The notes: generated from the sequence alone by a model not told the origin. 64,000 nt of DNA from Candidatus Gastranaerophilales bacterium (GCA_944324235.1 CALUVN010000001.1:331-64330); one strand, 5' to 3'. Positions 11,410 to 20,453 are shown, counted from the stretch's first letter. Numbers and translations are program-made.

Positions 11410-12708
11410 CTAAAATTCAAACGTATCGTTTTCATTCATTTCTTCATATTCTTCAGGGGTGACGGTGTCAGGTGCTTGAGCTTCCGTTTCAAGACCGCGG
11501 CGCAGGAGGTCAGGCTGCTTTTTGATTAACTTTTTGTCTGCGGAAACTATATCCCTGTAGAGTGATGTTGTGATTAATTGAATTGTTTTTTCAGTCGGCG
11601 CTCCTTCTTCGCCTACTTTTTCCTGAACTTTATAGCTTGCCCAGTCGTCAGGAAGTTCGGATATTTTTGTATAATCCAGATTTTCTCCGAGGCGCTTGTC
11701 TATTTCGTTTTCAAGAATGTTTGTGACGTATTCCTTTTGTGATTCAAAGTGGCACGGTTCATAGATTGTTGTGCCGATAACCTCTTCAGGGTCGCGTTTT
11801 TCGTATTTTTTGAAAAGGTCTGCCGCAACTTGAAGGTGGCCGAGTTCAAATGCAAGAAACTCTTCCCATACCTGTTTCAGTTTCAAATCGGATTCGTCTT
11901 TATAGCAGTTATAGTAATTGCAGACTTCCGTAAATTCGTGAACAAGTAATTTTTCAAACTTGGATTCTGTCGGGTCTATCAAAGATTCATACATTGTAAC
12001 GTGTTCTTCTTCGACATCACAGATTTCGGCATAAGTTCTTCTCAAATCGTCGTTGCCGTACATAAATCCGTGTTCCGCATAATAATTGTGGGTTTGCTGT
12101 TCACCTGATACAAGCGTAAGGATATTAACTTTTGTCTGCGGAGAAGCTGTTTCTTTATTATATGCCTTTCTCAATCTTATTTTGTTGTCATTGTGGTGAT
12201 TCTGGGTCGGGCGGCCTATTACAACATCTGTCATTCCCTGCAAAATATCATTAGGGTTTTGGCCTTCAATCATATATTGCCACTGGCTGTACCTGTATAG
12301 GTGGTCAAAATCCTCAAGCAGCCCGAAGTTAAAAGTTTCTCTTACATAATCATCGGGTTCGTTTTGCGCAAGCCATGCGGTGAGGTCAACAGCAACCTGT
12401 TCGTAGCCGAGAGTTGTATTCAAAACGGATTGGTCTGCCGGCCCGAACCAGTTTACCGTGGTCTGCTGCATGTCTTCTAAGCGTCTGATACAGGCAAGTG
12501 TTTTTCTCAAATCCAAATCGTCGCATAATCTCGCCATACAGTGTTTGTAGCCCCATGCTTCCGTTTCTATGCCGTTCATAAGAATTTGTCTTGTTCTTGT
12601 GTAGCAGTCTACTTCTGTTTTGTTAAACGGACGCTTTACGATATCGTGCCATGTTCTGATTTGTTTTTCTATGGAAATTCCTTTTTCTTTAAGCGGATTG
12701 AAAGTCAT
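11410..12708 (-). CDS. Hypothetical protein, possible ferritin-like di-iron fold
   Basis: 432 aa. Several E..H-type ligand candidates (GIETEAW, GEQQTHNYY, DVEEEHVTMYE, FELGHLQ). No firm family assignment. Confidence 0.35.
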   Translation of the reverse strand: MTFNPLKEKGISIEKQIRTWHDIVKRPFNKTEVDCYTRTRQILMNGIETEAWGYKHCMARLCDDLDLRKTLACIRRLEDMQQTTVNWFGPADQSVLNTTLGYEQVAVDLTAWLAQNEPDDYVRETFNFGLLEDFDHLYRYSQWQYMIEGQNPNDILQGMTDVVIGRPTQNHHNDNKIRLRKAYNKETASPQTKVNILTLVSGEQQTHNYYAEHGFMYGNDDLRRTYAEICDVEEEHVTMYESLIDPTESKFEKLLVHEFTEVCNYYNCYKDESDLKLKQVWEEFLAFELGHLQVAADLFKKYEKRDPEEVIGTTIYEPCHFESQKEYVTNILENEIDKRLGENLDYTKISELPDDWASYKVQEKVGEEGAPTEKTIQLITTSLYRDIVSADKKLIKKQPDLLRRGLETEAQAPDTVTPEEYEEMNENDTFEF

Positions 12709-12847: not shown

Positions 12848-13195
12848 ATGATGAAGAAATTAATTAAATTAATGTCAGTTATGATACTTACTTGCGGTAT
12901 CGCAATTGCACAGGAAATTACAACAGTAAGAGCAAGTCATATTCTTGTAAAAGACAGAAACGAAGCCGTTCAGATTAAGAAAGACATTGATAACGGCGGA
13001 AGTTTTGAAGAATACGCCCAAAAATATTCACTCTGTCCTTCAGGTCAAAGAGTAGGCGATTTGGGGTATTTCAGACGCGGACAAATGGTAAAACCGTTTG
13101 AAGACGAAGCTTTTGAACTTCCTGTAGGCGAAGTGTCAGACCCTGTGCCGACTGAATTCGGCTGGCATCTGATAAAAGTTACCGATAAGAAGTAG
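12848..13195 (+). CDS. Parvulin-type peptidyl-prolyl cis-trans isomerase (PpiC domain), secreted
   Basis: Signal peptide MMKKLIKLMSVMILTCGIAIA. Motifs ASHILV, GGSFEEYAQKYSLCPSGQRVGDLGYF and TEFGWHLIKV. Confidence 0.85.
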   Translation: MMKKLIKLMSVMILTCGIAIAQEITTVRASHILVKDRNEAVQIKKDIDNGGSFEEYAQKYSLCPSGQRVGDLGYFRRGQMVKPFEDEAFELPVGEVSDPVPTEFGWHLIKVTDKK

Positions 13196-13198
13196 ACT

Positions 13199-13690
13199 AT
13201 GAATTTTATAAAAGTTGAAAAAGAAGAGATTCCCGTGCTTGCAGCTCTTGCGTCAGATATCTGGCATGAATACTGGGGCATAATCCTTTCTGATGAACAG
13301 ATTGAATATATGGTCGAAAATTTTCAATCCGAAAAAGCTATGAAAAAACAGATTTCGGAGGAGAATTATTCGTACTGTTTTATTAACGATAACGGGGAAA
13401 ATATAGGCTATTTCGGCATTTCACCGAAAGACGGGTATATGTTTCTGTCCAAATTATATATAAAAAAAGAATTCCGCGGGCAGGGAACAGGGCGCAAAGC
13501 TTTTGAAGAAATTAAACGCCTGAGCGCAGAGCAGGGTTTTAATAAAATAAGGCTTACCGTAAACAAATACAACTCAAATACCATAAAAGCCTATGACCGT
13601 TGGGGGTTCAAAACTATAGATGCGGTTGTAACCGACATTGGTCAAGGCTTTGTAATGGACGATTATATTATGGAGTATTCGCTTTCTTAA
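13199..13690 (+). CDS. GNAT family N-acetyltransferase
   Basis: Acetyl-CoA motif A FRGQGTGRKAFEEI and a C-terminal AYDRWGF. Confidence 0.8.
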   Translation: MNFIKVEKEEIPVLAALASDIWHEYWGIILSDEQIEYMVENFQSEKAMKKQISEENYSYCFINDNGENIGYFGISPKDGYMFLSKLYIKKEFRGQGTGRKAFEEIKRLSAEQGFNKIRLTVNKYNSNTIKAYDRWGFKTIDAVVTDIGQGFVMDDYIMEYSLS

Positions 13691-15290
13691 AAGCTTCGAA
13701 TGCTACGGGAAGATTTTCCCGAATGTCCGGACGGATTGCCTGCGGCGGGGTTTCTAAAGGTTTTTGGTGGTTCTTTTTATATTCGGCAACCGCAATATTG
13801 AATAACGGCACCATAAACCCGAGTGCTACGGTTGAATAAGCAAGGCCTGCCATGTGTGCGACATTAAGTTTCCACATGTTTTTAAACGCAAAATCTTTAC
13901 CTTTTGCGGCAATTTCCGTATGAGATTTGAGGGTTATGTCGTTTAGCCAGTGTTTAATGCCTTTGCCTTCTTTATTTATATTGAACAGAAATTCGCGTTT
14001 TTTATCCAGAAGATTTGCCGTGCCTTTTGCTGCGAAGCCGCCGAGTACAAGCCAGTTAAGAAATCCGAAATAATCTCTTGTTACGGATTCTCTCAATTCG
14101 TTATCATTGTCTGCAGCCATGAATCTGCCTACGATTGTCGAAGTGTAGACGGTTTTTATTGCGTTTCCGCTTGATATAGGGCCGGTGAATTCCAGTTTTC
14201 TGATAAAATCTTTCGGATTTTTAATTCTCATAACCCCGATTGCCATAGCAATCATACCTGCGCTTGCTGCGAGTTTACGGAAGATAAATCCTCCGGTTTT
14301 CTTTTCTTCCTGAGTTTTTCCTGCGACAGCGTTTTCGTAGTCGACTTCTCCGACAAATTTTGTTGAGCCTGTGCGTTTTTTGGTTATCTGACGGTTAATA
14401 TACTGGTTAGTTAATCCCAGAACCGATGCCAGACTCAGCGCGCCCAAGATTTTTACTTTATTTACGGTTTTGATTTTATTCAGGGCAGATTCAATATTTA
14501 AGTTTTTATTTGTCAGAACATCTTTTCCCATATCGTATGTATCGCGGATTATATTGGAAAGAGTTGCGTTCATCTTATATTTGCCTGAAGTGACATCCAC
14601 GCTGCGGTTTACGCCCAGTGCATTTGTTACTCTGGCTTCTATCAGGCGGAAAAGGTTCTTTTTATCTTTAGAAGAGATATTATCGTTTTTGATAATTTCT
14701 GTCATCGTATCAACGATACCGTCGGAAGTTTTTAGTTTTTCGCTGATATTTTTGTAAGCCGGATTTTCCCATTTTATGTTATCCCAGCTTTTTTCGTCAA
14801 TCCAGTCGATATTTTTCCAGTTAATTTCGTTCCAGCGAGCGATTTTGCTGCCGTCGTGCCCGCTCATTCCGTTCATAACGTTGTTTACATATCCGCGTAA
14901 ACCGTCGCGGCTTTCGTCCCACGAATTTTTCAGCACCATAAGCGAATCATTGGAAAACCAGCTTTTGTTATTAATTTTTATTTCAGGATTTATATATTTA
15001 TTGGCAAGTATTCCGATAGGAATTGCCAGAAGTCCTGCAGACAGACAGTTGATAAATGTTCCGCAGATTTCGCGGAAGAAGGTTTCTGAACCTGCGTATT
15101 TGTTTCTTTTTTTTGTATCAATATAAGTTCTCGGGGCTACCATTGCGCCGACATCAAGAAGTACGGCGTTTGCCATTTCGTTTGTGTCGAGTGTGCGGAA
15201 TGTATTTGTAATAACTCCGTCCAGAGGTCCTTTAAATGTAGGTTTGTACTGTTGCTGCCGTTTTCCGTAATTTTTGACTGTTAAATCCAT
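13668..15290 (-). CDS. Orphan multi-pass membrane protein (540 aa), paralog of 15802..17139
   Basis: N-terminus is ...QQYKPTFKGPLD. It has about 5 hydrophobic segments and a large Asn/Lys/Trp-rich loop. GRFMAADNDNELRESVTRDYFGF aligns with GYFGAAKDRGKLEVQEVATRVPVI of the divergent neighbour. RBS GGAG lies upstream of ATG 15290. Confidence 0.6.
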   Translation of the reverse strand: MDLTVKNYGKRQQQYKPTFKGPLDGVITNTFRTLDTNEMANAVLLDVGAMVAPRTYIDTKKRNKYAGSETFFREICGTFINCLSAGLLAIPIGILANKYINPEIKINNKSWFSNDSLMVLKNSWDESRDGLRGYVNNVMNGMSGHDGSKIARWNEINWKNIDWIDEKSWDNIKWENPAYKNISEKLKTSDGIVDTMTEIIKNDNISSKDKKNLFRLIEARVTNALGVNRSVDVTSGKYKMNATLSNIIRDTYDMGKDVLTNKNLNIESALNKIKTVNKVKILGALSLASVLGLTNQYINRQITKKRTGSTKFVGEVDYENAVAGKTQEEKKTGGFIFRKLAASAGMIAMAIGVMRIKNPKDFIRKLEFTGPISSGNAIKTVYTSTIVGRFMAADNDNELRESVTRDYFGFLNWLVLGGFAAKGTANLLDKKREFLFNINKEGKGIKHWLNDITLKSHTEIAAKGKDFAFKNMWKLNVAHMAGLAYSTVALGFMVPLFNIAVAEYKKNHQKPLETPPQAIRPDIRENLPVAFEAFKKANTP

Positions 15291-15310
15291 GTTCTTCTGA
15301 TTTCTCCATT

Positions 15311-15339
15311 AAAAAAGTCCCGCCATGCCGGCGGGACTT
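15311..15339 (-). terminator. Leader (attenuator) terminator 20 nt upstream of the 540-aa gene start
   Basis: Minus-strand RNA reads AAGUCCCGCC-loop-GGCGGGACUU (10 bp, GC-rich) followed by a U6 run, then AAUGGAGAAAUCAGAAGAAC-AUG. Confidence 0.6.
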
Positions 15340-15379
15340 AAATTATCTTATAAACTTTTGCTGCATCAAACTTTTCTCA

Positions 15380-15472
15380 TCACACGCAAAGCTTTAAAAT
15401 AAGTCCCGTCGGAAACTTATTCGAAGAGGAGGAGGATGAGGATGAAGTTGTTAATGCGTATAATTTTTTCAT
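15380..15472 (-). CDS. Candidate leader peptide, 30 aa, with eight consecutive Ser codons
   Basis: My translation is MKKLYALTTSSSSSSSSNKFPTGLILKLCV*. SD AAAGGGA lies 6 nt upstream. Ser codons TCA TCC TCA TCC TCC TCC TCT TCG occupy 15445-15422. The ORF is below the track's length cut-off. Confidence 0.5.
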   Translation of the reverse strand: MKKLYALTTSSSSSSSSNKFPTGLILKLCV

Positions 15473-15496
15473 TAATTTCCCTTTTCTATGTTTTAT

Positions 15497-15526
15497 ATAA
15501 TACTCCAACAAAAATTTTTTTGTCAA
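15497..15526 (-). promoter_or_regulatory. Sigma70-like promoter for the Ser leader
   Basis: On the minus strand: TTGACA (15526-15521), 18-nt spacer, TATTAT (15502-15497). The predicted TSS near 15490 includes the leader SD. Confidence 0.45.
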
Positions 15527-15554
15527 TAGGTGTAGTGTATACAATTTCTATATA

Positions 15555-15581
15555 TTGACACGGGAATTTCTTTTTTATAAT
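15555..15581 (+). promoter_or_regulatory. Sigma70-like promoter for the Met leader
   Basis: TTGACA (15555-15560) and TATAAT (15576-15581). The spacer is only 15 nt, shorter than optimal. It sits back-to-back with the minus-strand promoter. Confidence 0.4.
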
Positions 15582-15635
15582 CTCTAATTAAGAAAAAAGG
15601 GAAAAAATATTTTGAATATACGTTCTTTTGAAAAA

Positions 15636-15704
15636 ATGACAGATATGATGATGGCTATGCAAATGATGATGATGTGCAAGTCAGCTTCAGTCTGCCGAAT
15701 GTGA
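15636..15704 (+). CDS. Candidate leader peptide, 22 aa, 10 Met
   Basis: My translation is MTDMMMAMQMMMMCKSASVCRM*. The SD is weak (GAAAAA). Codons 15-20 form one arm of a 15-bp helix with the terminator 5' arm. Confidence 0.4.
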   Translation: MTDMMMAMQMMMMCKSASVCRM

Positions 15705-15739
15705 TGAACATTTTTCAAAATTAACAGATTGGAGCTGAC
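15680..15739 (+). promoter_or_regulatory. Candidate antiterminator helix
   Basis: 15680-15694 gtcagcttcagtctg pairs with 15725-15739 cagattggagctgac over 15 contiguous bp (13 Watson-Crick plus 2 G-U). It competes with the 7-bp terminator stem for 15733-15739. Confidence 0.45.
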
Positions 15740-15766
15740 GGTAATTAAACGGGTCAGCTTTTTTTA
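15733..15766 (+). terminator. Leader terminator upstream of the 445-aa membrane protein gene
   Basis: agctgac (15733-15739) and gtcagct (15753-15759) form the stem, followed by T7. The heptamer gtcagct is duplicated at 15680-15686. Confidence 0.5.
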
Positions 15767-15801
15767 TGCGTGTATTACAGAATTATAAGGAAGATATTAA
15801 A

Positions 15802-17139
15802 ATGACATTTGATTATAACGTAACATTTACTGCTAAAACCCCTCACGGTGTAAATAAAATTTCAAAAGAGCTGCTGGATAATTTAACCCCTAAAAAGAGA
15901 TTTCTGGCAAAAGTTATAGATATGAAAGAAGGCGATTCCGGACTTTCACATTCGCGATTTGCTCAGGCAACGGCGACAAACTGGCTGCCTAAGGCTGTTT
16001 TTGCAAGAAGTCTGGCAGATTTGTCCGAGATAAGTTTTCTTGAAGTGTTTGAATCGGCCCTGTTTTTCTATCTGCCGTCACTGATGGGTGAATATCTTTC
16101 CAGAAGAAAAATATTTTCAAAATTTCTTCCGAAAGACCTCAGGAAAGATGTATCAAAATCCGTAGCGGAGCTTGCAAATAATCCTGCGGCAGGAAAGCTT
16201 TTGCCGGTCAAAGCAGGTATCGTGTTAAGTTGTGCGGCAATTCCTGCGGCAGAGTACGGTTTGAGTTTTGCTAAGAATTTGTTTACCCAGAAACTTTTCA
16301 ACAAAGCGGATTTCAGCAATGTTGTAAATCTTGATAAAGAGAAAAAAGAAGACCCTAAGGTGCATGAAAGAGTGGAAAAAAGTGCTGTTTCACATCTTAA
16401 AAAGGCAGGAATTGTTTCAGCCGCCGCGTTTGGTGCAAGTATAGCGCTTGCGGCAGCCGGACGTAAAAGCAGGGCGGTGCAAAAAGCCAGCGAAATTTTC
16501 CTGAATCCGGGGGCAAAAATTTACAACCTGCTTGAAAAAACAGGAGTAAAATCCAATGGGCTTAAAAATTTCTTAGACACTTATGTCAACCTTGATTTTG
16601 CGAGAAAATCGGACGGTTCTCTTGCGCTTGGCAACGGACAGCTTGCCGTAACAGTGTTATCGGGCGTCGCAGGTTATTTTGGCGCTGCAAAAGACAGAGG
16701 TAAACTTGAAGTACAAGAAGTTGCAACAAGAGTACCGGTGATTGCACTATATACAATTTTCGGGAGTACACTGTTTGACGCAGGGTTTAAAAAATTGCTC
16801 CAAAAGAACGGCAAGTACCCTGAAATTCTTTCAAAAGACTTGAATGTCGCATCACTTAACGATATCCCGAAAATTGCCAAACAAATTGCAGGCGATGACA
16901 AAAATCTTTATAAACAAAAAATTGGTGAATTATTTAAAGGCAAAGCAGTAATTGCAATGGTTCCGTTTTTGTTCAGTCTGCTGGTTGTAGGCGGGCTGCT
17001 TGCGTTGATTTCACGCCTTTGGACACAGTACAGATATAACCGCAGTATAGCAGATAAACCGCCGGTACAGCCTGCTTTCAATAACAGTTTCGGAACAGGC
17101 AGCAATATATTAATCAATCAAATCCACAAGGCCGGTTGA
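15802..17139 (+). CDS. Orphan multi-pass membrane protein (445 aa), paralog of 13668..15290
   Basis: Start moved to ATG 15802 (MTFDYNVTFTAKTP), preceded by AAGGAAG. The track start at 15766 lies inside the terminator T-run. About 6 hydrophobic segments. The C-terminal TM followed by TQYRYNRS resembles AEYKKNHQ of the paralog. Confidence 0.6.
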   Translation: MTFDYNVTFTAKTPHGVNKISKELLDNLTPKKRFLAKVIDMKEGDSGLSHSRFAQATATNWLPKAVFARSLADLSEISFLEVFESALFFYLPSLMGEYLSRRKIFSKFLPKDLRKDVSKSVAELANNPAAGKLLPVKAGIVLSCAAIPAAEYGLSFAKNLFTQKLFNKADFSNVVNLDKEKKEDPKVHERVEKSAVSHLKKAGIVSAAAFGASIALAAAGRKSRAVQKASEIFLNPGAKIYNLLEKTGVKSNGLKNFLDTYVNLDFARKSDGSLALGNGQLAVTVLSGVAGYFGAAKDRGKLEVQEVATRVPVIALYTIFGSTLFDAGFKKLLQKNGKYPEILSKDLNVASLNDIPKIAKQIAGDDKNLYKQKIGELFKGKAVIAMVPFLFSLLVVGGLLALISRLWTQYRYNRSIADKPPVQPAFNNSFGTGSNILINQIHKAG

Positions 17140-17715
17140 GTGGTCAAGGTGGCATTTGGCAATGTATAATTTGTCATTGTCAACGGCGTTTTTAATTATA
17201 CGGGATTTTTCAAGCAGAACTTCCTCAACCCAGATGGTGTGCTGCTGCGCAAAGTAATTATGGCAGGTGATGTCTTCTTTTTTATCCAGTACAGGATAAA
17301 CACAATTTATTATGGATTTGAAGTCTTCCGTCTGCTCAGGATAATGGTCTTTTGCGTATTTCATAACCCCGCAGTCATCATGGCCGAGAAGTACAAGCAG
17401 CGGAACTTCAAGTTTTTTGACGGCATATTCAATGCTTTCGATAACGTTAGGGCCTGCGGTTATTCCTGCTACCCTCACGACAAATAGTTCCCCTATTCCG
17501 CAGTCAAAAATTATCTCAGGCACAACCCGCGAATCCGAACAACTTAAAACAACGGCACGCGGCTCTTGATGAAATGCAAATTTTTTCAAAGTCTCAAGGC
17601 ACATATTTTTTGCTGTAGGTGTGCCGTTTACAAAATTTTTGTTCCCGTTGAGCAGGCGCTCAAGCTCTCTTTTTGCGTTTTCGTTCATAGAGTTATTATA
17701 TAATATTTTTTTCAA
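17110..17715 (-). CDS. Beta-class carbonic anhydrase
   Basis: Zn ligands in LSCSDSRV and GHDDCG. FVVRVAGI is also present. Confidence 0.85.
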   Translation of the reverse strand: MKKILYNNSMNENAKRELERLLNGNKNFVNGTPTAKNMCLETLKKFAFHQEPRAVVLSCSDSRVVPEIIFDCGIGELFVVRVAGITAGPNVIESIEYAVKKLEVPLLVLLGHDDCGVMKYAKDHYPEQTEDFKSIINCVYPVLDKKEDITCHNYFAQQHTIWVEEVLLEKSRIIKNAVDNDKLYIAKCHLDHSTGLVDLID

Positions 17716-17783
17716 AAACTCAAATACTCGTATGATTGCTTTTTGACAGGAATTTAATATTATATTTTTAAAAGGGGAATTTT

Positions 17784-20453
17784 ATGGAATTAACGGAACA
17801 CTCACAGGCGATTATCAATTCTGCAAAATCAATTGCGAACGCAAGAAACTTTATGATGGTCGAACCGGAACAAATTTTACTTGCATTAATGTACGACGAA
17901 AATGATTTACCAAAGATTCTGCTCTCTAAAATCGGGCTGGATAACCCGTCGCTTGCGCAGCAGTTAGACGGATTTATCACAAAACGAGGCTGTAAACCGT
18001 TAAGTGATTATAAAGACATGCCGCTTTCCAAAAATACGGCAAAACTCCTTGAAATTGCGCGTGATGAGGCCAGAATGTCCAATGATTCCCTGATAAGTAT
18101 TGAACATCTTTTGCTTGCACTTTTGAAAATCGACAGCGGTACTATTATTTACCTGTTTGAAAAGAATAAAATTTCCCGAAAAGATGTTTATGAAAAACTG
18201 ATTACCGTAATAAGAAACATAACAACAGTTGATATAGTTTCGACCCCTGACACTCCAGCAGCCCCTGTTGAAAGTCCGAAAGAAACCGCCGCCGTACAAA
18301 AAATTGAACAACAAACACAGACCCCGCTTCAAAAATATACGGTTGATATTACGGAAAAAGCAAAGCAAAACAAACTTGATCCTGTCATCGGCAGAGATGA
18401 CGAAATTCGGCGCGTAATACAAATTCTGAACCGTCGTTCCAAAAACAATCCCGTAATTATCGGCGAGCCGGGGGTGGGAAAAACAGCGATTATTGAAGGT
18501 CTTGCACAGCGGATTGCATGCGGTGACGTGCCTGAAAGTTTAAAAAATGACAGGATAATGGAGCTTGATTTAGGTGCACTGCTTGCAGGTGCATCATACA
18601 GAGGCGAGTTTGAAGACCGCCTGAAAGGTGTTTTAAAAGAAATTGAAGAGCACTATGAAGATTTGATGCTTTTTATTGATGAAATTCATACAATCATGGG
18701 GCTTGGCGGTTCAGAAGGCTCTGTTGATGCGGGAAATCTTCTGAAACCGATGCTTGCCCGCGGCAACGTACGTGTAATCGGTGCAACAACTACAGACGAG
18801 TACAGAAAATATATAGAAAAAGATAAAGCGCTCGAACGCCGTTTTCAGCCTGTTATCGCGGAAGAACCGTCCGTTGAAACTACTATAAGTATTCTCAGAG
18901 GTCTTAAAGATAAATATGAGGCTTATCACGGGGTAAAAATTCTTGATGATGCCATTGTTCAGGCCGTAAAATTATCGGACAGGTACATCTCTGACCGCTA
19001 TCTTCCGGATAAGGCAATCGACCTTATTGACGAGGCAGCATCTTCCCTCAGAATTGCTATAGACACTCTCCCTGAAGAAATTGATGTTTATATAAGAGAA
19101 AAAATGCAGCTTGAAATCGAAAAAGGTGCGCTTAAAAAAGAACACTCCAAAGAAGCTGAAAGTAAAATTCAGAAAATTCTCAAAAAAATAGAAACGATAG
19201 ATGCAAAGATTAACAAGTTAAAAAATCAATGGGCTCAGGAAAAGAAACTTATTGAAACCACCCGCGTTTTGAAAAAGAACATGGCGGCTATTAAAGCTCA
19301 GCTTGAACTCAATAAGAAAAATGAATCCCCTGATATCAATATAGAAAAACGCTATGCACAAATGGCAGAAACACAGAAAAAACTTGAAGCCATTCAGGCC
19401 AAATCTTCCACTCACCGCCTGATTAAAGAAGAAATTGACGGCGAAGATATCTCGGAAATTATTTCAAAATCAACAGGAATTCCTGTAACAAGCCTTCTTG
19501 AAGACGAATCGCAAAAGTTAGTCCACATGGAAGACTACCTGAAAAAACGCGTTGTAGGACAGGATGTAGCTGTTAAAAAGATATCCGATGCAATAAGACT
19601 CGGCCGCTCCGGTCTGAATGATCCTAAGCGTCCTATAGGTACATTCCTGTTTCTCGGCCCGACAGGGGTTGGGAAAACCGAACTTGCAAAAGCTCTTTCG
19701 GAATTCATGTTCAGTGACGAGGATTCTCTAATCAGAATTGACATGAGTGAATTTATGGAAAAACAAAACGTATCGCGTCTTGTAGGTTCAGCACCGGGAT
19801 ACGTAGGCTACGAAGAAGGCGGTCAGTTAACCGAAGCTGTCCGCAGAAAACCTTATTCGGTTGTTCTGTTCGATGAGGCGGAAAAAGCTCATCCCGATAT
19901 ATTTAACATAATGCTCCAGATGTTTGACGATGGCCGTTTAACCGACGGACAGGGGCATTTGATTGATTTTAAAAATACCGTCATTATTATGACAAGTAAT
20001 ATTGCAAGCGATGTCATTTTAAATGAACAATTAACAGAACACGACAAAGAACAGCAGATTAAATGTGCCCTCCGTTCAAAGTTTAAGCCTGAATTTATAA
20101 ACAGAATTGATGAAATTATTTCATTCAATCCTCTTGATATTGAACAATTAAAAAGCATCATTGATATTCAGCTTAAATCTCTTCAGGCAAGAATGGCGGA
20201 ACAACAAATTACACTGGAAGTTACTGAACCTGCAAAAGAATATCTGGCAAAAGCAGGATACGAGCCTCTTTACGGTGCAAGGCCGCTGAAACGGGTTCTG
20301 CGTAAGCTTCTGGAAATCCCGCTTTCAATGAAAATAGTCGCTAACGAATTCCAAAAAGGTGATTCTGTCCTCGCTGACTGTGTTGATAATGCGATTGTTT
20401 TGTCGAAAAAGACGGCTGCTGCTAAAAGTTTACAGACAAATACAGCGAATTAA
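17784..20453 (+). CDS. clpB: Chaperone/disaggregase ClpB
   Basis: 889 aa. Clp N-domain, two AAA+ modules (GEPGVGKTAI, GPTGVGKTELAK) and a long coiled-coil M-domain between them. LDEAEKAH-type Walker B (FDEAEKAH). Confidence 0.95.
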   Translation: MELTEHSQAIINSAKSIANARNFMMVEPEQILLALMYDENDLPKILLSKIGLDNPSLAQQLDGFITKRGCKPLSDYKDMPLSKNTAKLLEIARDEARMSNDSLISIEHLLLALLKIDSGTIIYLFEKNKISRKDVYEKLITVIRNITTVDIVSTPDTPAAPVESPKETAAVQKIEQQTQTPLQKYTVDITEKAKQNKLDPVIGRDDEIRRVIQILNRRSKNNPVIIGEPGVGKTAIIEGLAQRIACGDVPESLKNDRIMELDLGALLAGASYRGEFEDRLKGVLKEIEEHYEDLMLFIDEIHTIMGLGGSEGSVDAGNLLKPMLARGNVRVIGATTTDEYRKYIEKDKALERRFQPVIAEEPSVETTISILRGLKDKYEAYHGVKILDDAIVQAVKLSDRYISDRYLPDKAIDLIDEAASSLRIAIDTLPEEIDVYIREKMQLEIEKGALKKEHSKEAESKIQKILKKIETIDAKINKLKNQWAQEKKLIETTRVLKKNMAAIKAQLELNKKNESPDINIEKRYAQMAETQKKLEAIQAKSSTHRLIKEEIDGEDISEIISKSTGIPVTSLLEDESQKLVHMEDYLKKRVVGQDVAVKKISDAIRLGRSGLNDPKRPIGTFLFLGPTGVGKTELAKALSEFMFSDEDSLIRIDMSEFMEKQNVSRLVGSAPGYVGYEEGGQLTEAVRRKPYSVVLFDEAEKAHPDIFNIMLQMFDDGRLTDGQGHLIDFKNTVIIMTSNIASDVILNEQLTEHDKEQQIKCALRSKFKPEFINRIDEIISFNPLDIEQLKSIIDIQLKSLQARMAEQQITLEVTEPAKEYLAKAGYEPLYGARPLKRVLRKLLEIPLSMKIVANEFQKGDSVLADCVDNAIVLSKKTAAAKSLQTNTAN

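Follow-up and report, generated by a model that had tools for sequence, protein, structure and literature searches.

A 64-kb stretch of DNA (64,000 nucleotides, nt) from Candidatus Gastranaerophilales bacterium, a gut-dwelling member of the Gastranaerophilaceae (Melainabacteria), is referred to here as the window and contains a short leader immediately upstream of a gene encoding a 540-amino-acid (aa) membrane protein. Judged from its sequence, this leader very probably acts as a serine (Ser)-specific attenuator of transcription, of the ribosome-mediated (leader-peptide) trp/his type. Leader-peptide attenuation is textbook biology, and few amino acids are known to be sensed in this manner; read in this way, the element is an attenuator of the known trp/his class with a new specificity (serine), in a new phylum and before a new target.

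Support in silico comes from the elements themselves, the covariation of three helices, the frame and spacing of the codon run, its codon bias, an exchange of Ser for cysteine (Cys) codons between paralogues, and depletion of the corresponding amino acid in the regulated product; every structural feature of the trp/his class that can be checked in silico is present in the leader. A complete serine attenuator would thereby have been kept across dozens of species of an uncultured, Cyanobacteria-related gut lineage, with the Ser/Cys paralogue pair providing a natural specificity swap, in which one scaffold carries different codon runs and the products show the matching depletion. The element would also imply that transcription and translation are coupled in Melainabacteria, and would provide the first clue to the function of a large membrane-protein family that lacks annotation and whose predicted fold is novel; members of this family would be made when serine or cysteine/sulfur is short. 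It may serve as a lead to how these gut bacteria obtain serine or cysteine/sulfur and, possibly, to conditions for culturing them.

Architecture of the leader

All leader coordinates refer to the minus strand of the window. The leader begins with a sigma-70-type promoter (-35 TTGACA at 15526-15521, an 18-nt spacer, and -10 TATTAT at 15502-15497), which, with 11/12 matches, is the top promoter-like site within 13000-18000. A Shine-Dalgarno (SD) sequence, AAAGGGA (15484-15478), lies 5 nt upstream of the ATG at 15472, where a short open reading frame (sORF) begins; this sORF, MKKLYALTTSSSSSSSSNKFPTGLILKLCV, spans 15472-15380 and comprises 30 codons plus a stop (15382-15380). About 30 nt separate its ATG from the putative regulatory codons, a run of eight consecutive UCN Ser codons (TCA TCC TCA TCC TCC TCC TCT TCG, 15445-15422).

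Four segments capable of alternative pairing follow. Segment 1 (15422-15412), the 5' arm of the anti-antiterminator 1:2, directly adjoins the run, its first base being the last base of the final Ser codon. Segment 2 (15412-15397, core CGGGACUUA) is the shared strand, which can take either segment 1 or segment 3 as its partner. Segment 3 (15340-15328) forms the 5' arm of the terminator and, alternatively, pairs with segment 2 in the antiterminator 2:3, while segment 4 (GGCGGGACUU, 15324-15315) is the 3' arm of the intrinsic terminator, with a T6 tract (15316-15311) as the release site. From this tract to the ATG of the regulated gene (15290; gene 15290-13668, SD GGAGA at 15307-15303) there are 20 nt. 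The hairpin is situated between two divergent gene starts, and is therefore not the terminator of an upstream gene.

An earlier note on this stretch, made from the sequence alone, had described the promoter, SD sequence, sORF, eight-Ser run, hairpin with U6 and 20-nt spacing, and all of these were recovered where it had placed them. It had further proposed that AAUAAGU (15421-15415) pairs with ACUUAUU (15404-15398), and that CGGGACUUA (15408-15400) finds its exact complement in UAAGUCCCG (15340-15332) of the terminator arm; both pairings are present, and folding lengthens the first to an 11-base-pair (bp) 1:2 helix (15422-15412 with 15407-15397, -8.7 kcal/mol). For the 2:3 helix, folding gives 10 pairs (15412-15402 with 15338-15328), which close an interrupted inner helix of 24 bp (15401-15375 with 15370-15344); the region as a whole has a folding energy of -28.0 kcal/mol. 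The inner antiterminator helix, taken from the minimum-free-energy (MFE) fold of a transcript ending before segment 4, holds both the sORF stop (15382-15380) and a conserved motif, CUUUGCGUGUGAUGAG. The terminator 3:4 pairs 15339-15330 with 15324-15315 at -19.1 kcal/mol.

In the mechanism that we propose, transcription would start a few bases past the -10 box (15502-15497), and a ribosome would load onto the 30-codon leader ORF. If seryl-tRNA reading UCN codons is ample, the ribosome would reach the stop at 15382-15380, covering or disrupting segment 2 and the inner antiterminator helix; with segment 2 blocked, segment 3 would pair with segment 4 and RNA polymerase would terminate at the T-tract (15316-15311). 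With no ribosome on the leader, segment 1 would pair with segment 2, and termination would again be expected. When charged tRNA-Ser is scarce, by contrast, the ribosome would stall within 15445-15422 and mask segment 1, leaving segment 2 free to pair with segment 3 before segment 4 exists, so that no terminator would form and the 540-aa gene would be transcribed. We infer that readthrough is controlled by ribosome stalling in the run.

Among the sORFs of the 64-kb window, this is the only one with at least three identical residues in a row followed by a terminator, and neither another such leader nor a second member of the 540-aa family was found within the window. In a collection of 15 billion proteins, no called protein corresponds to the sORF peptide.

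Conservation and covariation in related species

The leader was compared across the upstream regions of relatives of the 540-aa gene at 80 loci from different species, of which 78 were testable. The codon run, segments 1-4 and the T-tract recur in 77 of the 78 testable Gastranaerophilales loci, in a common layout that consists of a TTGACA promoter, a short ORF, a Ser-codon run usually followed by AAG, a CGGGACUUG-like segment and a terminator of the form AAGUCCCG...CGGGACUUUUUU. A promoter motif (TTGACR-N15-19-TWHNHT, at most 90 nt upstream of the sORF ATG) is found in 69/78 loci, and an SD-like motif (counted at -4 to -16 of this ATG) in 58/78. The sORFs range from 16 to 30 aa in length (median 25). 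In every locus (78/78), an in-frame ATG precedes the run without an intervening stop, compared with 1/78 and 3/78 for the other two frames.

Base pairing was assessed in a MAFFT alignment of 74 distinct leaders (alignment A2), in which the percentage of paired cells was compared with that obtained when the registers were slid against each other. All three helices are conserved by this measure: the terminator 3:4, which was also predicted by RNAalifold run independently on the leaders, is paired in 94.0% of cells (40-80% when slid), with compensatory changes at 8 of its 9 pairs; the antiterminator 2:3 is paired in 89.6% (17-61% when slid), with double changes in its core from GC to AU at pair 41-138 (11 sequences) and from AU to GC at pair 42-137 (7 sequences); and the 1:2 stem, six pairs of which show double changes, is paired in 76.5% (30-46% when slid). 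The segment 2 core, GGGACUU in the window, covaries with both terminator arms, and appears as GGAACUU, AGAGCUU or GGGGC in other species. Segment 2 pairs with the terminator arm of its own locus at -12.3 kcal/mol, compared with -10.5 kcal/mol for the arms of other loci and -5.5 kcal/mol for shuffled ones. At least six pairs between segments 2 and 3 are contained in the MFE fold of the partial transcript in 78/78 loci, and in 97% of loci the region from segment 2 to segment 3 is more stably folded than its shuffles, with a median z of -3.6.

Spacing is conserved as well. The run ends a median of 10 nt before segment 2 (interquartile range 9-12), and the position of the sORF stop codon, relative to the end of segment 2, ranges from about -25 to +19 nt. 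Given this constraint, together with standard ribosome footprint sizes, a ribosome within the run would mask segment 1 but leave segment 2 exposed, whereas one that has arrived at the stop would occupy segment 2. Among close relatives, the scaffold is kept and the run itself varies (SSSSSSSS, SSSSNS, SNNSSNSC). The trp/his logic advanced in the earlier note is therefore supported by the conserved helices, the in-frame ATG, the spacing and the Cys version of the scaffold described below, and its expectation that relatives would retain the run and complementary segments is borne out, with a Cys run in place of Ser in the sister clade, by 77/78 loci and by the compensatory changes in the stems.

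To scan metagenomes we used a run-blind pattern, defined by segments 2, 3 and 4 only. It retrieved 15 Ser-run leaders: 13 have a downstream ORF on the contig, in all cases a member of the 540-aa family, and for the remaining 2 the contig ends before a downstream ORF could be assigned. The same scan found Phe/Tyr-rich and Leu-rich leaders before prephenate dehydratase, as well as one Ile-run (IIII) leader before a class I tRNA synthetase gene. As leaders of these kinds are retrieved before such genes, the architecture is that of accepted amino-acid attenuators.

The Phe/Tyr (e.g. MKIGNTFFYFYYYFFKAQAGL), Leu and IIII leaders (L099, L103, L106, L125, L132, L139, L168 and others) lie on environmental contigs of 40-50% GC, and have their GGGACUU/AAGUCCC stem sequence in common with the Melainabacteria leaders; this sharing could reflect either common ancestry or an artefact of the search pattern. 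A further conserved feature of the Gastranaerophilales leaders is a motif, TTTTGRYGTGTAR (window 15393-15378, minus strand; columns about 53-75 of A2), located 5-20 nt past segment 2, whose conservation equals that of the helices and which is kept in or out of the sORF frame. In the window it lies within the inner antiterminator helix, and it might have a second role as a polymerase pause site. In many loci (L007 and L012, for instance), a similar motif, TTTTAGTGTGYA, occurs just past the T-tract of the terminator.

Serine and cysteine versions and the regulated protein

In a subset of loci, four Cys codons (CCCC) replace the Ser run on the same scaffold; CCCC is found in 18/18 Cys-type leaders. 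Clustering of the regulated proteins splits them cleanly into two clades, with 56% identity between the two, that correspond to 59 Ser-leader and 18 Cys-leader genes, and two genomes (QHME01 and DHMN01) carry one gene of each type. Uninterrupted Ser runs in the 60 Ser-type leaders comprise 1-10 codons (3-5 codons in 48/60); at least three uninterrupted Ser codons are present in 57/60, the other three containing interrupted Ser/Cys clusters. The eight Ser codons of the window form the second-longest uninterrupted run among the 60, and a Cys codon occurs inside the run in 22/60.

The runs are biased in codon choice. TCC had been expected to be rare in so AT-rich a genome, yet it accounts for 17% of Ser codons in the long ORFs of the window and is not especially rare there; what stands out is how strongly the leader runs are enriched in it, at 61% of run codons. 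TCA amounts to 33% of run codons (25% in the long ORFs) and AGY to 1% (27%), TCC and TCA together constituting 95% of run codons. By analogy, this choice matches the starvation-sensitive Ser codons of Bacillus subtilis, in which ribosomes starved for Ser slow at UCN but pass AGC/AGU without slowing; they are slowed at Cys codons too, an effect explained by serine serving as the precursor of cysteine (PMC3862929).

The composition of the regulated proteins follows the same division. Ser content is 4.2% in Ser-clade proteins and 7.1% in Cys-clade proteins (p = 4e-10), compared with 6.0% in window ORFs, while 17/18 Cys-clade proteins contain a single Cys and the Met content of this clade is 1.6% vs 2.6%. 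Depletion of the amino acid encoded by a protein's own leader run is expected for proteins made during starvation for that amino acid.

The regulated gene, which is monocistronic in the window, had been labelled an orphan, a description that can be abandoned: of the candidates scored against the 540-aa protein, 833 are database relatives at E <= 0.001, those with names coming from Candidatus Gastranaerophilaceae or Melainabacteria gut genomes, and an exhaustive profile search places 487 clusters at 50% identity in its family. The gene is a member of a large, unannotated Melainabacteria family, uncharacterised but not orphan. Comparisons of the protein with Pfam, NCBIfam, PHROG and PADLOC gave no match, nor did a profile search against PDB sequences. 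An AlphaFold model was obtained with a predicted local distance difference test (pLDDT) score of 89.5 and a predicted template modelling (pTM) score of 0.85, and a Foldseek comparison of this model with the PDB returned nothing with a template modelling (TM) score above 0.2. Four or five hydrophobic helices are present in the protein, along with large soluble parts that are helical. No conserved synteny or operon partner was found across the loci, where neighbouring genes are lineage-specific.

The regulatory logic and the cognate bias suggest that the membrane protein may help to acquire serine or, in the sister clade, cysteine/sulfur. A role of the window protein in serine acquisition seems to us a reasonable suggestion with somewhat less than an even chance of being right. 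We are slightly more tentative about the broader proposal that the 540-aa proteins represent a new class of amino-acid acquisition proteins, in which one paralogue would serve serine and another cysteine/sulfur, and in which the leader run would tell the substrate.

Known attenuators, alternative explanations and neighbouring genes

With the classical leaders of Proteobacteria (trpL, hisL, pheL, thrL, leuL and ilvL; Rfam Trp_, His_, Phe_, Thr_ and Leu_leader), the window leader shares a run of codons for a single amino acid in a short translated ORF, four segments forming 1:2, 2:3 and 3:4, an intrinsic terminator just before the regulated gene, a stop placed such that a finishing ribosome would block segment 2, and starvation-sensitive codons. 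In contrast to these leaders, its amino acid is serine, its host belongs to the Melainabacteria (Cyanobacteriota lineage), its target is one uncharacterised membrane-protein gene, not a biosynthetic operon or tRNA synthetase, and it has no sequence or covariance-model similarity to them above threshold. At the gathering threshold, no Rfam family matched anywhere in the window, and when the leader was scanned permissively all scores stayed below threshold, including Phe_leader (RF01859; 21.5 vs 55 bits) and Trp_leader (RF00513; 16.2 vs 41 bits). The placement of Ser outside the classical set, as stated at the outset in the earlier note, stands: no Ser-codon leader was found in Rfam 15 or in literature searches, and the latter identified no paper on a serine leader or on any Melainabacteria attenuator.

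Several other systems share individual features with the leader. Cys-run short ORFs like those of the sister clade (L032, L064-L067, L071, L073-L076 and others) have been described before cys/cbs operons in the actinobacteria Mycobacterium, Propionibacterium and Bifidobacterium (Seliverstov et al. 2005, PMC1262725). Those leaders have no recognisable terminator/antiterminator, Rho-dependent termination having been proposed, and their targets are cysteine biosynthesis genes (PMC1262725), whereas the Melainabacteria Cys leaders possess clear terminators, the full 1:2, 2:3, 3:4 geometry and a membrane-protein target. The window leader, being the Ser version of the latter, falls outside the actinobacterial group on account of its Ser run and intrinsic terminator. 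Slow decoding of UCN, not AGC/AGU, with an effect on Cys codons also, is shared with sinR of B. subtilis (Subramaniam et al. 2013, PMC3862929); there, however, the codons form part of the coding region of the regulator itself and affect how much protein is made, without a dedicated RNA switch (PMC3862929), whereas those of the window are concentrated in a dedicated leader that would drive the terminator/antiterminator choice. Control of a membrane-protein gene by ribosome position is also found before transporter genes, in the Pro-codon leaders of Salmonella mgtA/mgtL and mgtCBR/mgtP (PMC3641672) and in B. subtilis bmrB-bmrCD (PMC4191407). These respond to proline or osmotic/Mg2+ signals, or to antibiotics, through other structures, with mgt using Rho or other inputs, and none has a serine run.

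Three alternatives to a serine-specific attenuator were weighed. If the sORF encoded a functional small peptide (a modified-peptide precursor, a toxin or a signal), with the hairpin as its leaky terminator, it would be natural for it to own a promoter, an SD sequence and a terminator; some modified peptides have Ser/Cys-rich cores, and the C-terminus of the peptide seems conserved in subsets of loci (e.g. GTCMNFGV, SGLGGFSV). The stretch encoding 'GL' or 'GT', however, is segment 2, which covaries with the terminator arm, so that conservation here tracks RNA pairing; the motif past segment 2 is kept irrespective of reading frame, N-terminal parts and lengths vary freely, and run length differs among the close relatives cited above. 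Moreover, strong avoidance of AGY would be meaningless for a peptide product, and no modifying enzyme or other conserved neighbour is present in the loci. We regard a functional peptide as extremely unlikely, and a modified-peptide precursor in particular was rejected on the basis of RNA-level covariation, frame-independent conservation and the absence of conserved neighbouring modification or transport genes.

A real switch could also be set by a protein, a small molecule or uncharged tRNA acting on the leader, the sORF being incidental. T-boxes, riboswitches, PyrR and TRAP share the terminator/antiterminator logic, and the permissive Rfam scan weakly matched leaders of this kind (e.g. PyrR, 17.5 bits), but no family reached threshold, Phe_leader scoring best. 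Neither the frame of the run, open to an upstream ATG in all testable loci and in hardly any for the other frames, nor the finding that the repeated codon, Ser vs Cys, is the only large difference between the paralogue leaders fits an incidental sORF, and the approximately 30 nt between ATG and run provide no space for a structured aptamer; we consider such a switch quite improbable. Alternatively, the ribosome could stall in the run in response to tRNA modification, an inhibitor or a general slowdown, in the manner of erm or bmrB. Leader-peptide attenuators sensing antibiotics or general translation stress do exist (PMC4191407, PMC6851288). Modifications of UCN- and UGY-reading tRNAs, moreover, can depend on sulfur or isopentenyl donors. 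Antibiotic-sensing leaders, however, need specific nascent peptides, not homopolymeric codon runs, and the clean Ser/Cys partition favours amino-acid-specific signals, as does the depletion of each regulated protein in exactly the amino acid of its leader, making a signal of this kind very improbable in our view. Separately, the idea that the UCC-rich run acts as an anti-SD sequence for the main gene was rejected, the pairing energy being -5.2 kcal/mol vs -4.3 kcal/mol for shuffled SD regions and Cys-type runs pairing no worse.

Several observations weigh against serine-specific attenuation itself. Comparing the energies of the conformers had been suggested as a check, and its outcome is mixed: 2:3 forms in the partial transcript, but the full-length leader at equilibrium adopts the terminated fold even when the run is masked, the antiterminator being visible only in the truncated, co-transcriptional fold. 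The choice between the two structures must therefore be made kinetically, as it is in known attenuators, which puts a demonstration of the switch beyond the reach of thermodynamic folding alone. Attenuation also needs transcription-translation coupling, which we infer for Melainabacteria. The 540-aa protein has no recognisable serine link and an architecture unlike that of typical amino-acid permeases, and Ser and Cys are not among the amino acids that, according to reconstructions, gut Melainabacteria cannot make (PMC3787301). As two clades are compared, the Ser/Cys difference in cognate bias amounts in effect to a single phylogenetic contrast. Finally, two distant paralogues of the protein (about 32% identity) have no run-containing leader, and no runs of other amino acids were found in these two examples. 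At one of them (L082:1340-1385), a lone terminator-like hairpin (ACCTGCA...TGCAGGTTTTTT) is located about 110 nt upstream of the start, with no run-containing sORF, and regulation there may be different.

Upstream of the leader, the window encodes a divergent 457-aa membrane protein (15766-17139, plus strand) with no Pfam, NCBIfam, PHROG or PADLOC match; that it might be a paralogue of the 540-aa protein was rejected, as the two have no similarity. A homologue of the 457-aa protein adjoins the regulated gene at another locus (L040), and the close relatives L203 and L205 have upstream divergent ORFs of comparable size (460 and 452 aa, matched by size alone). An MnmA-like gene (tRNA 2-thiouridylase, sulfur-using), identified by eye from sequence, divergently adjoins 9/19 Cys-type genes on the opposite strand (L050, L074, L076, L079 and five more), and an anaerobic ribonucleotide reductase-like ORF lies downstream in 11 Ser-type loci; both neighbours probably reflect lineage synteny.

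Downstream in the window, a 432-aa ORF (11410-12708, minus strand) is rich in acidic residues and has no Pfam match. A convergent 163-aa ORF (13199-13690, plus strand) and the 540-aa gene overlap at their 3' ends by 23 nt (13668-13690), with no terminator between the two. In the close relative L205, the counterpart of this 163-aa ORF matches acetyltransferase families in Pfam.

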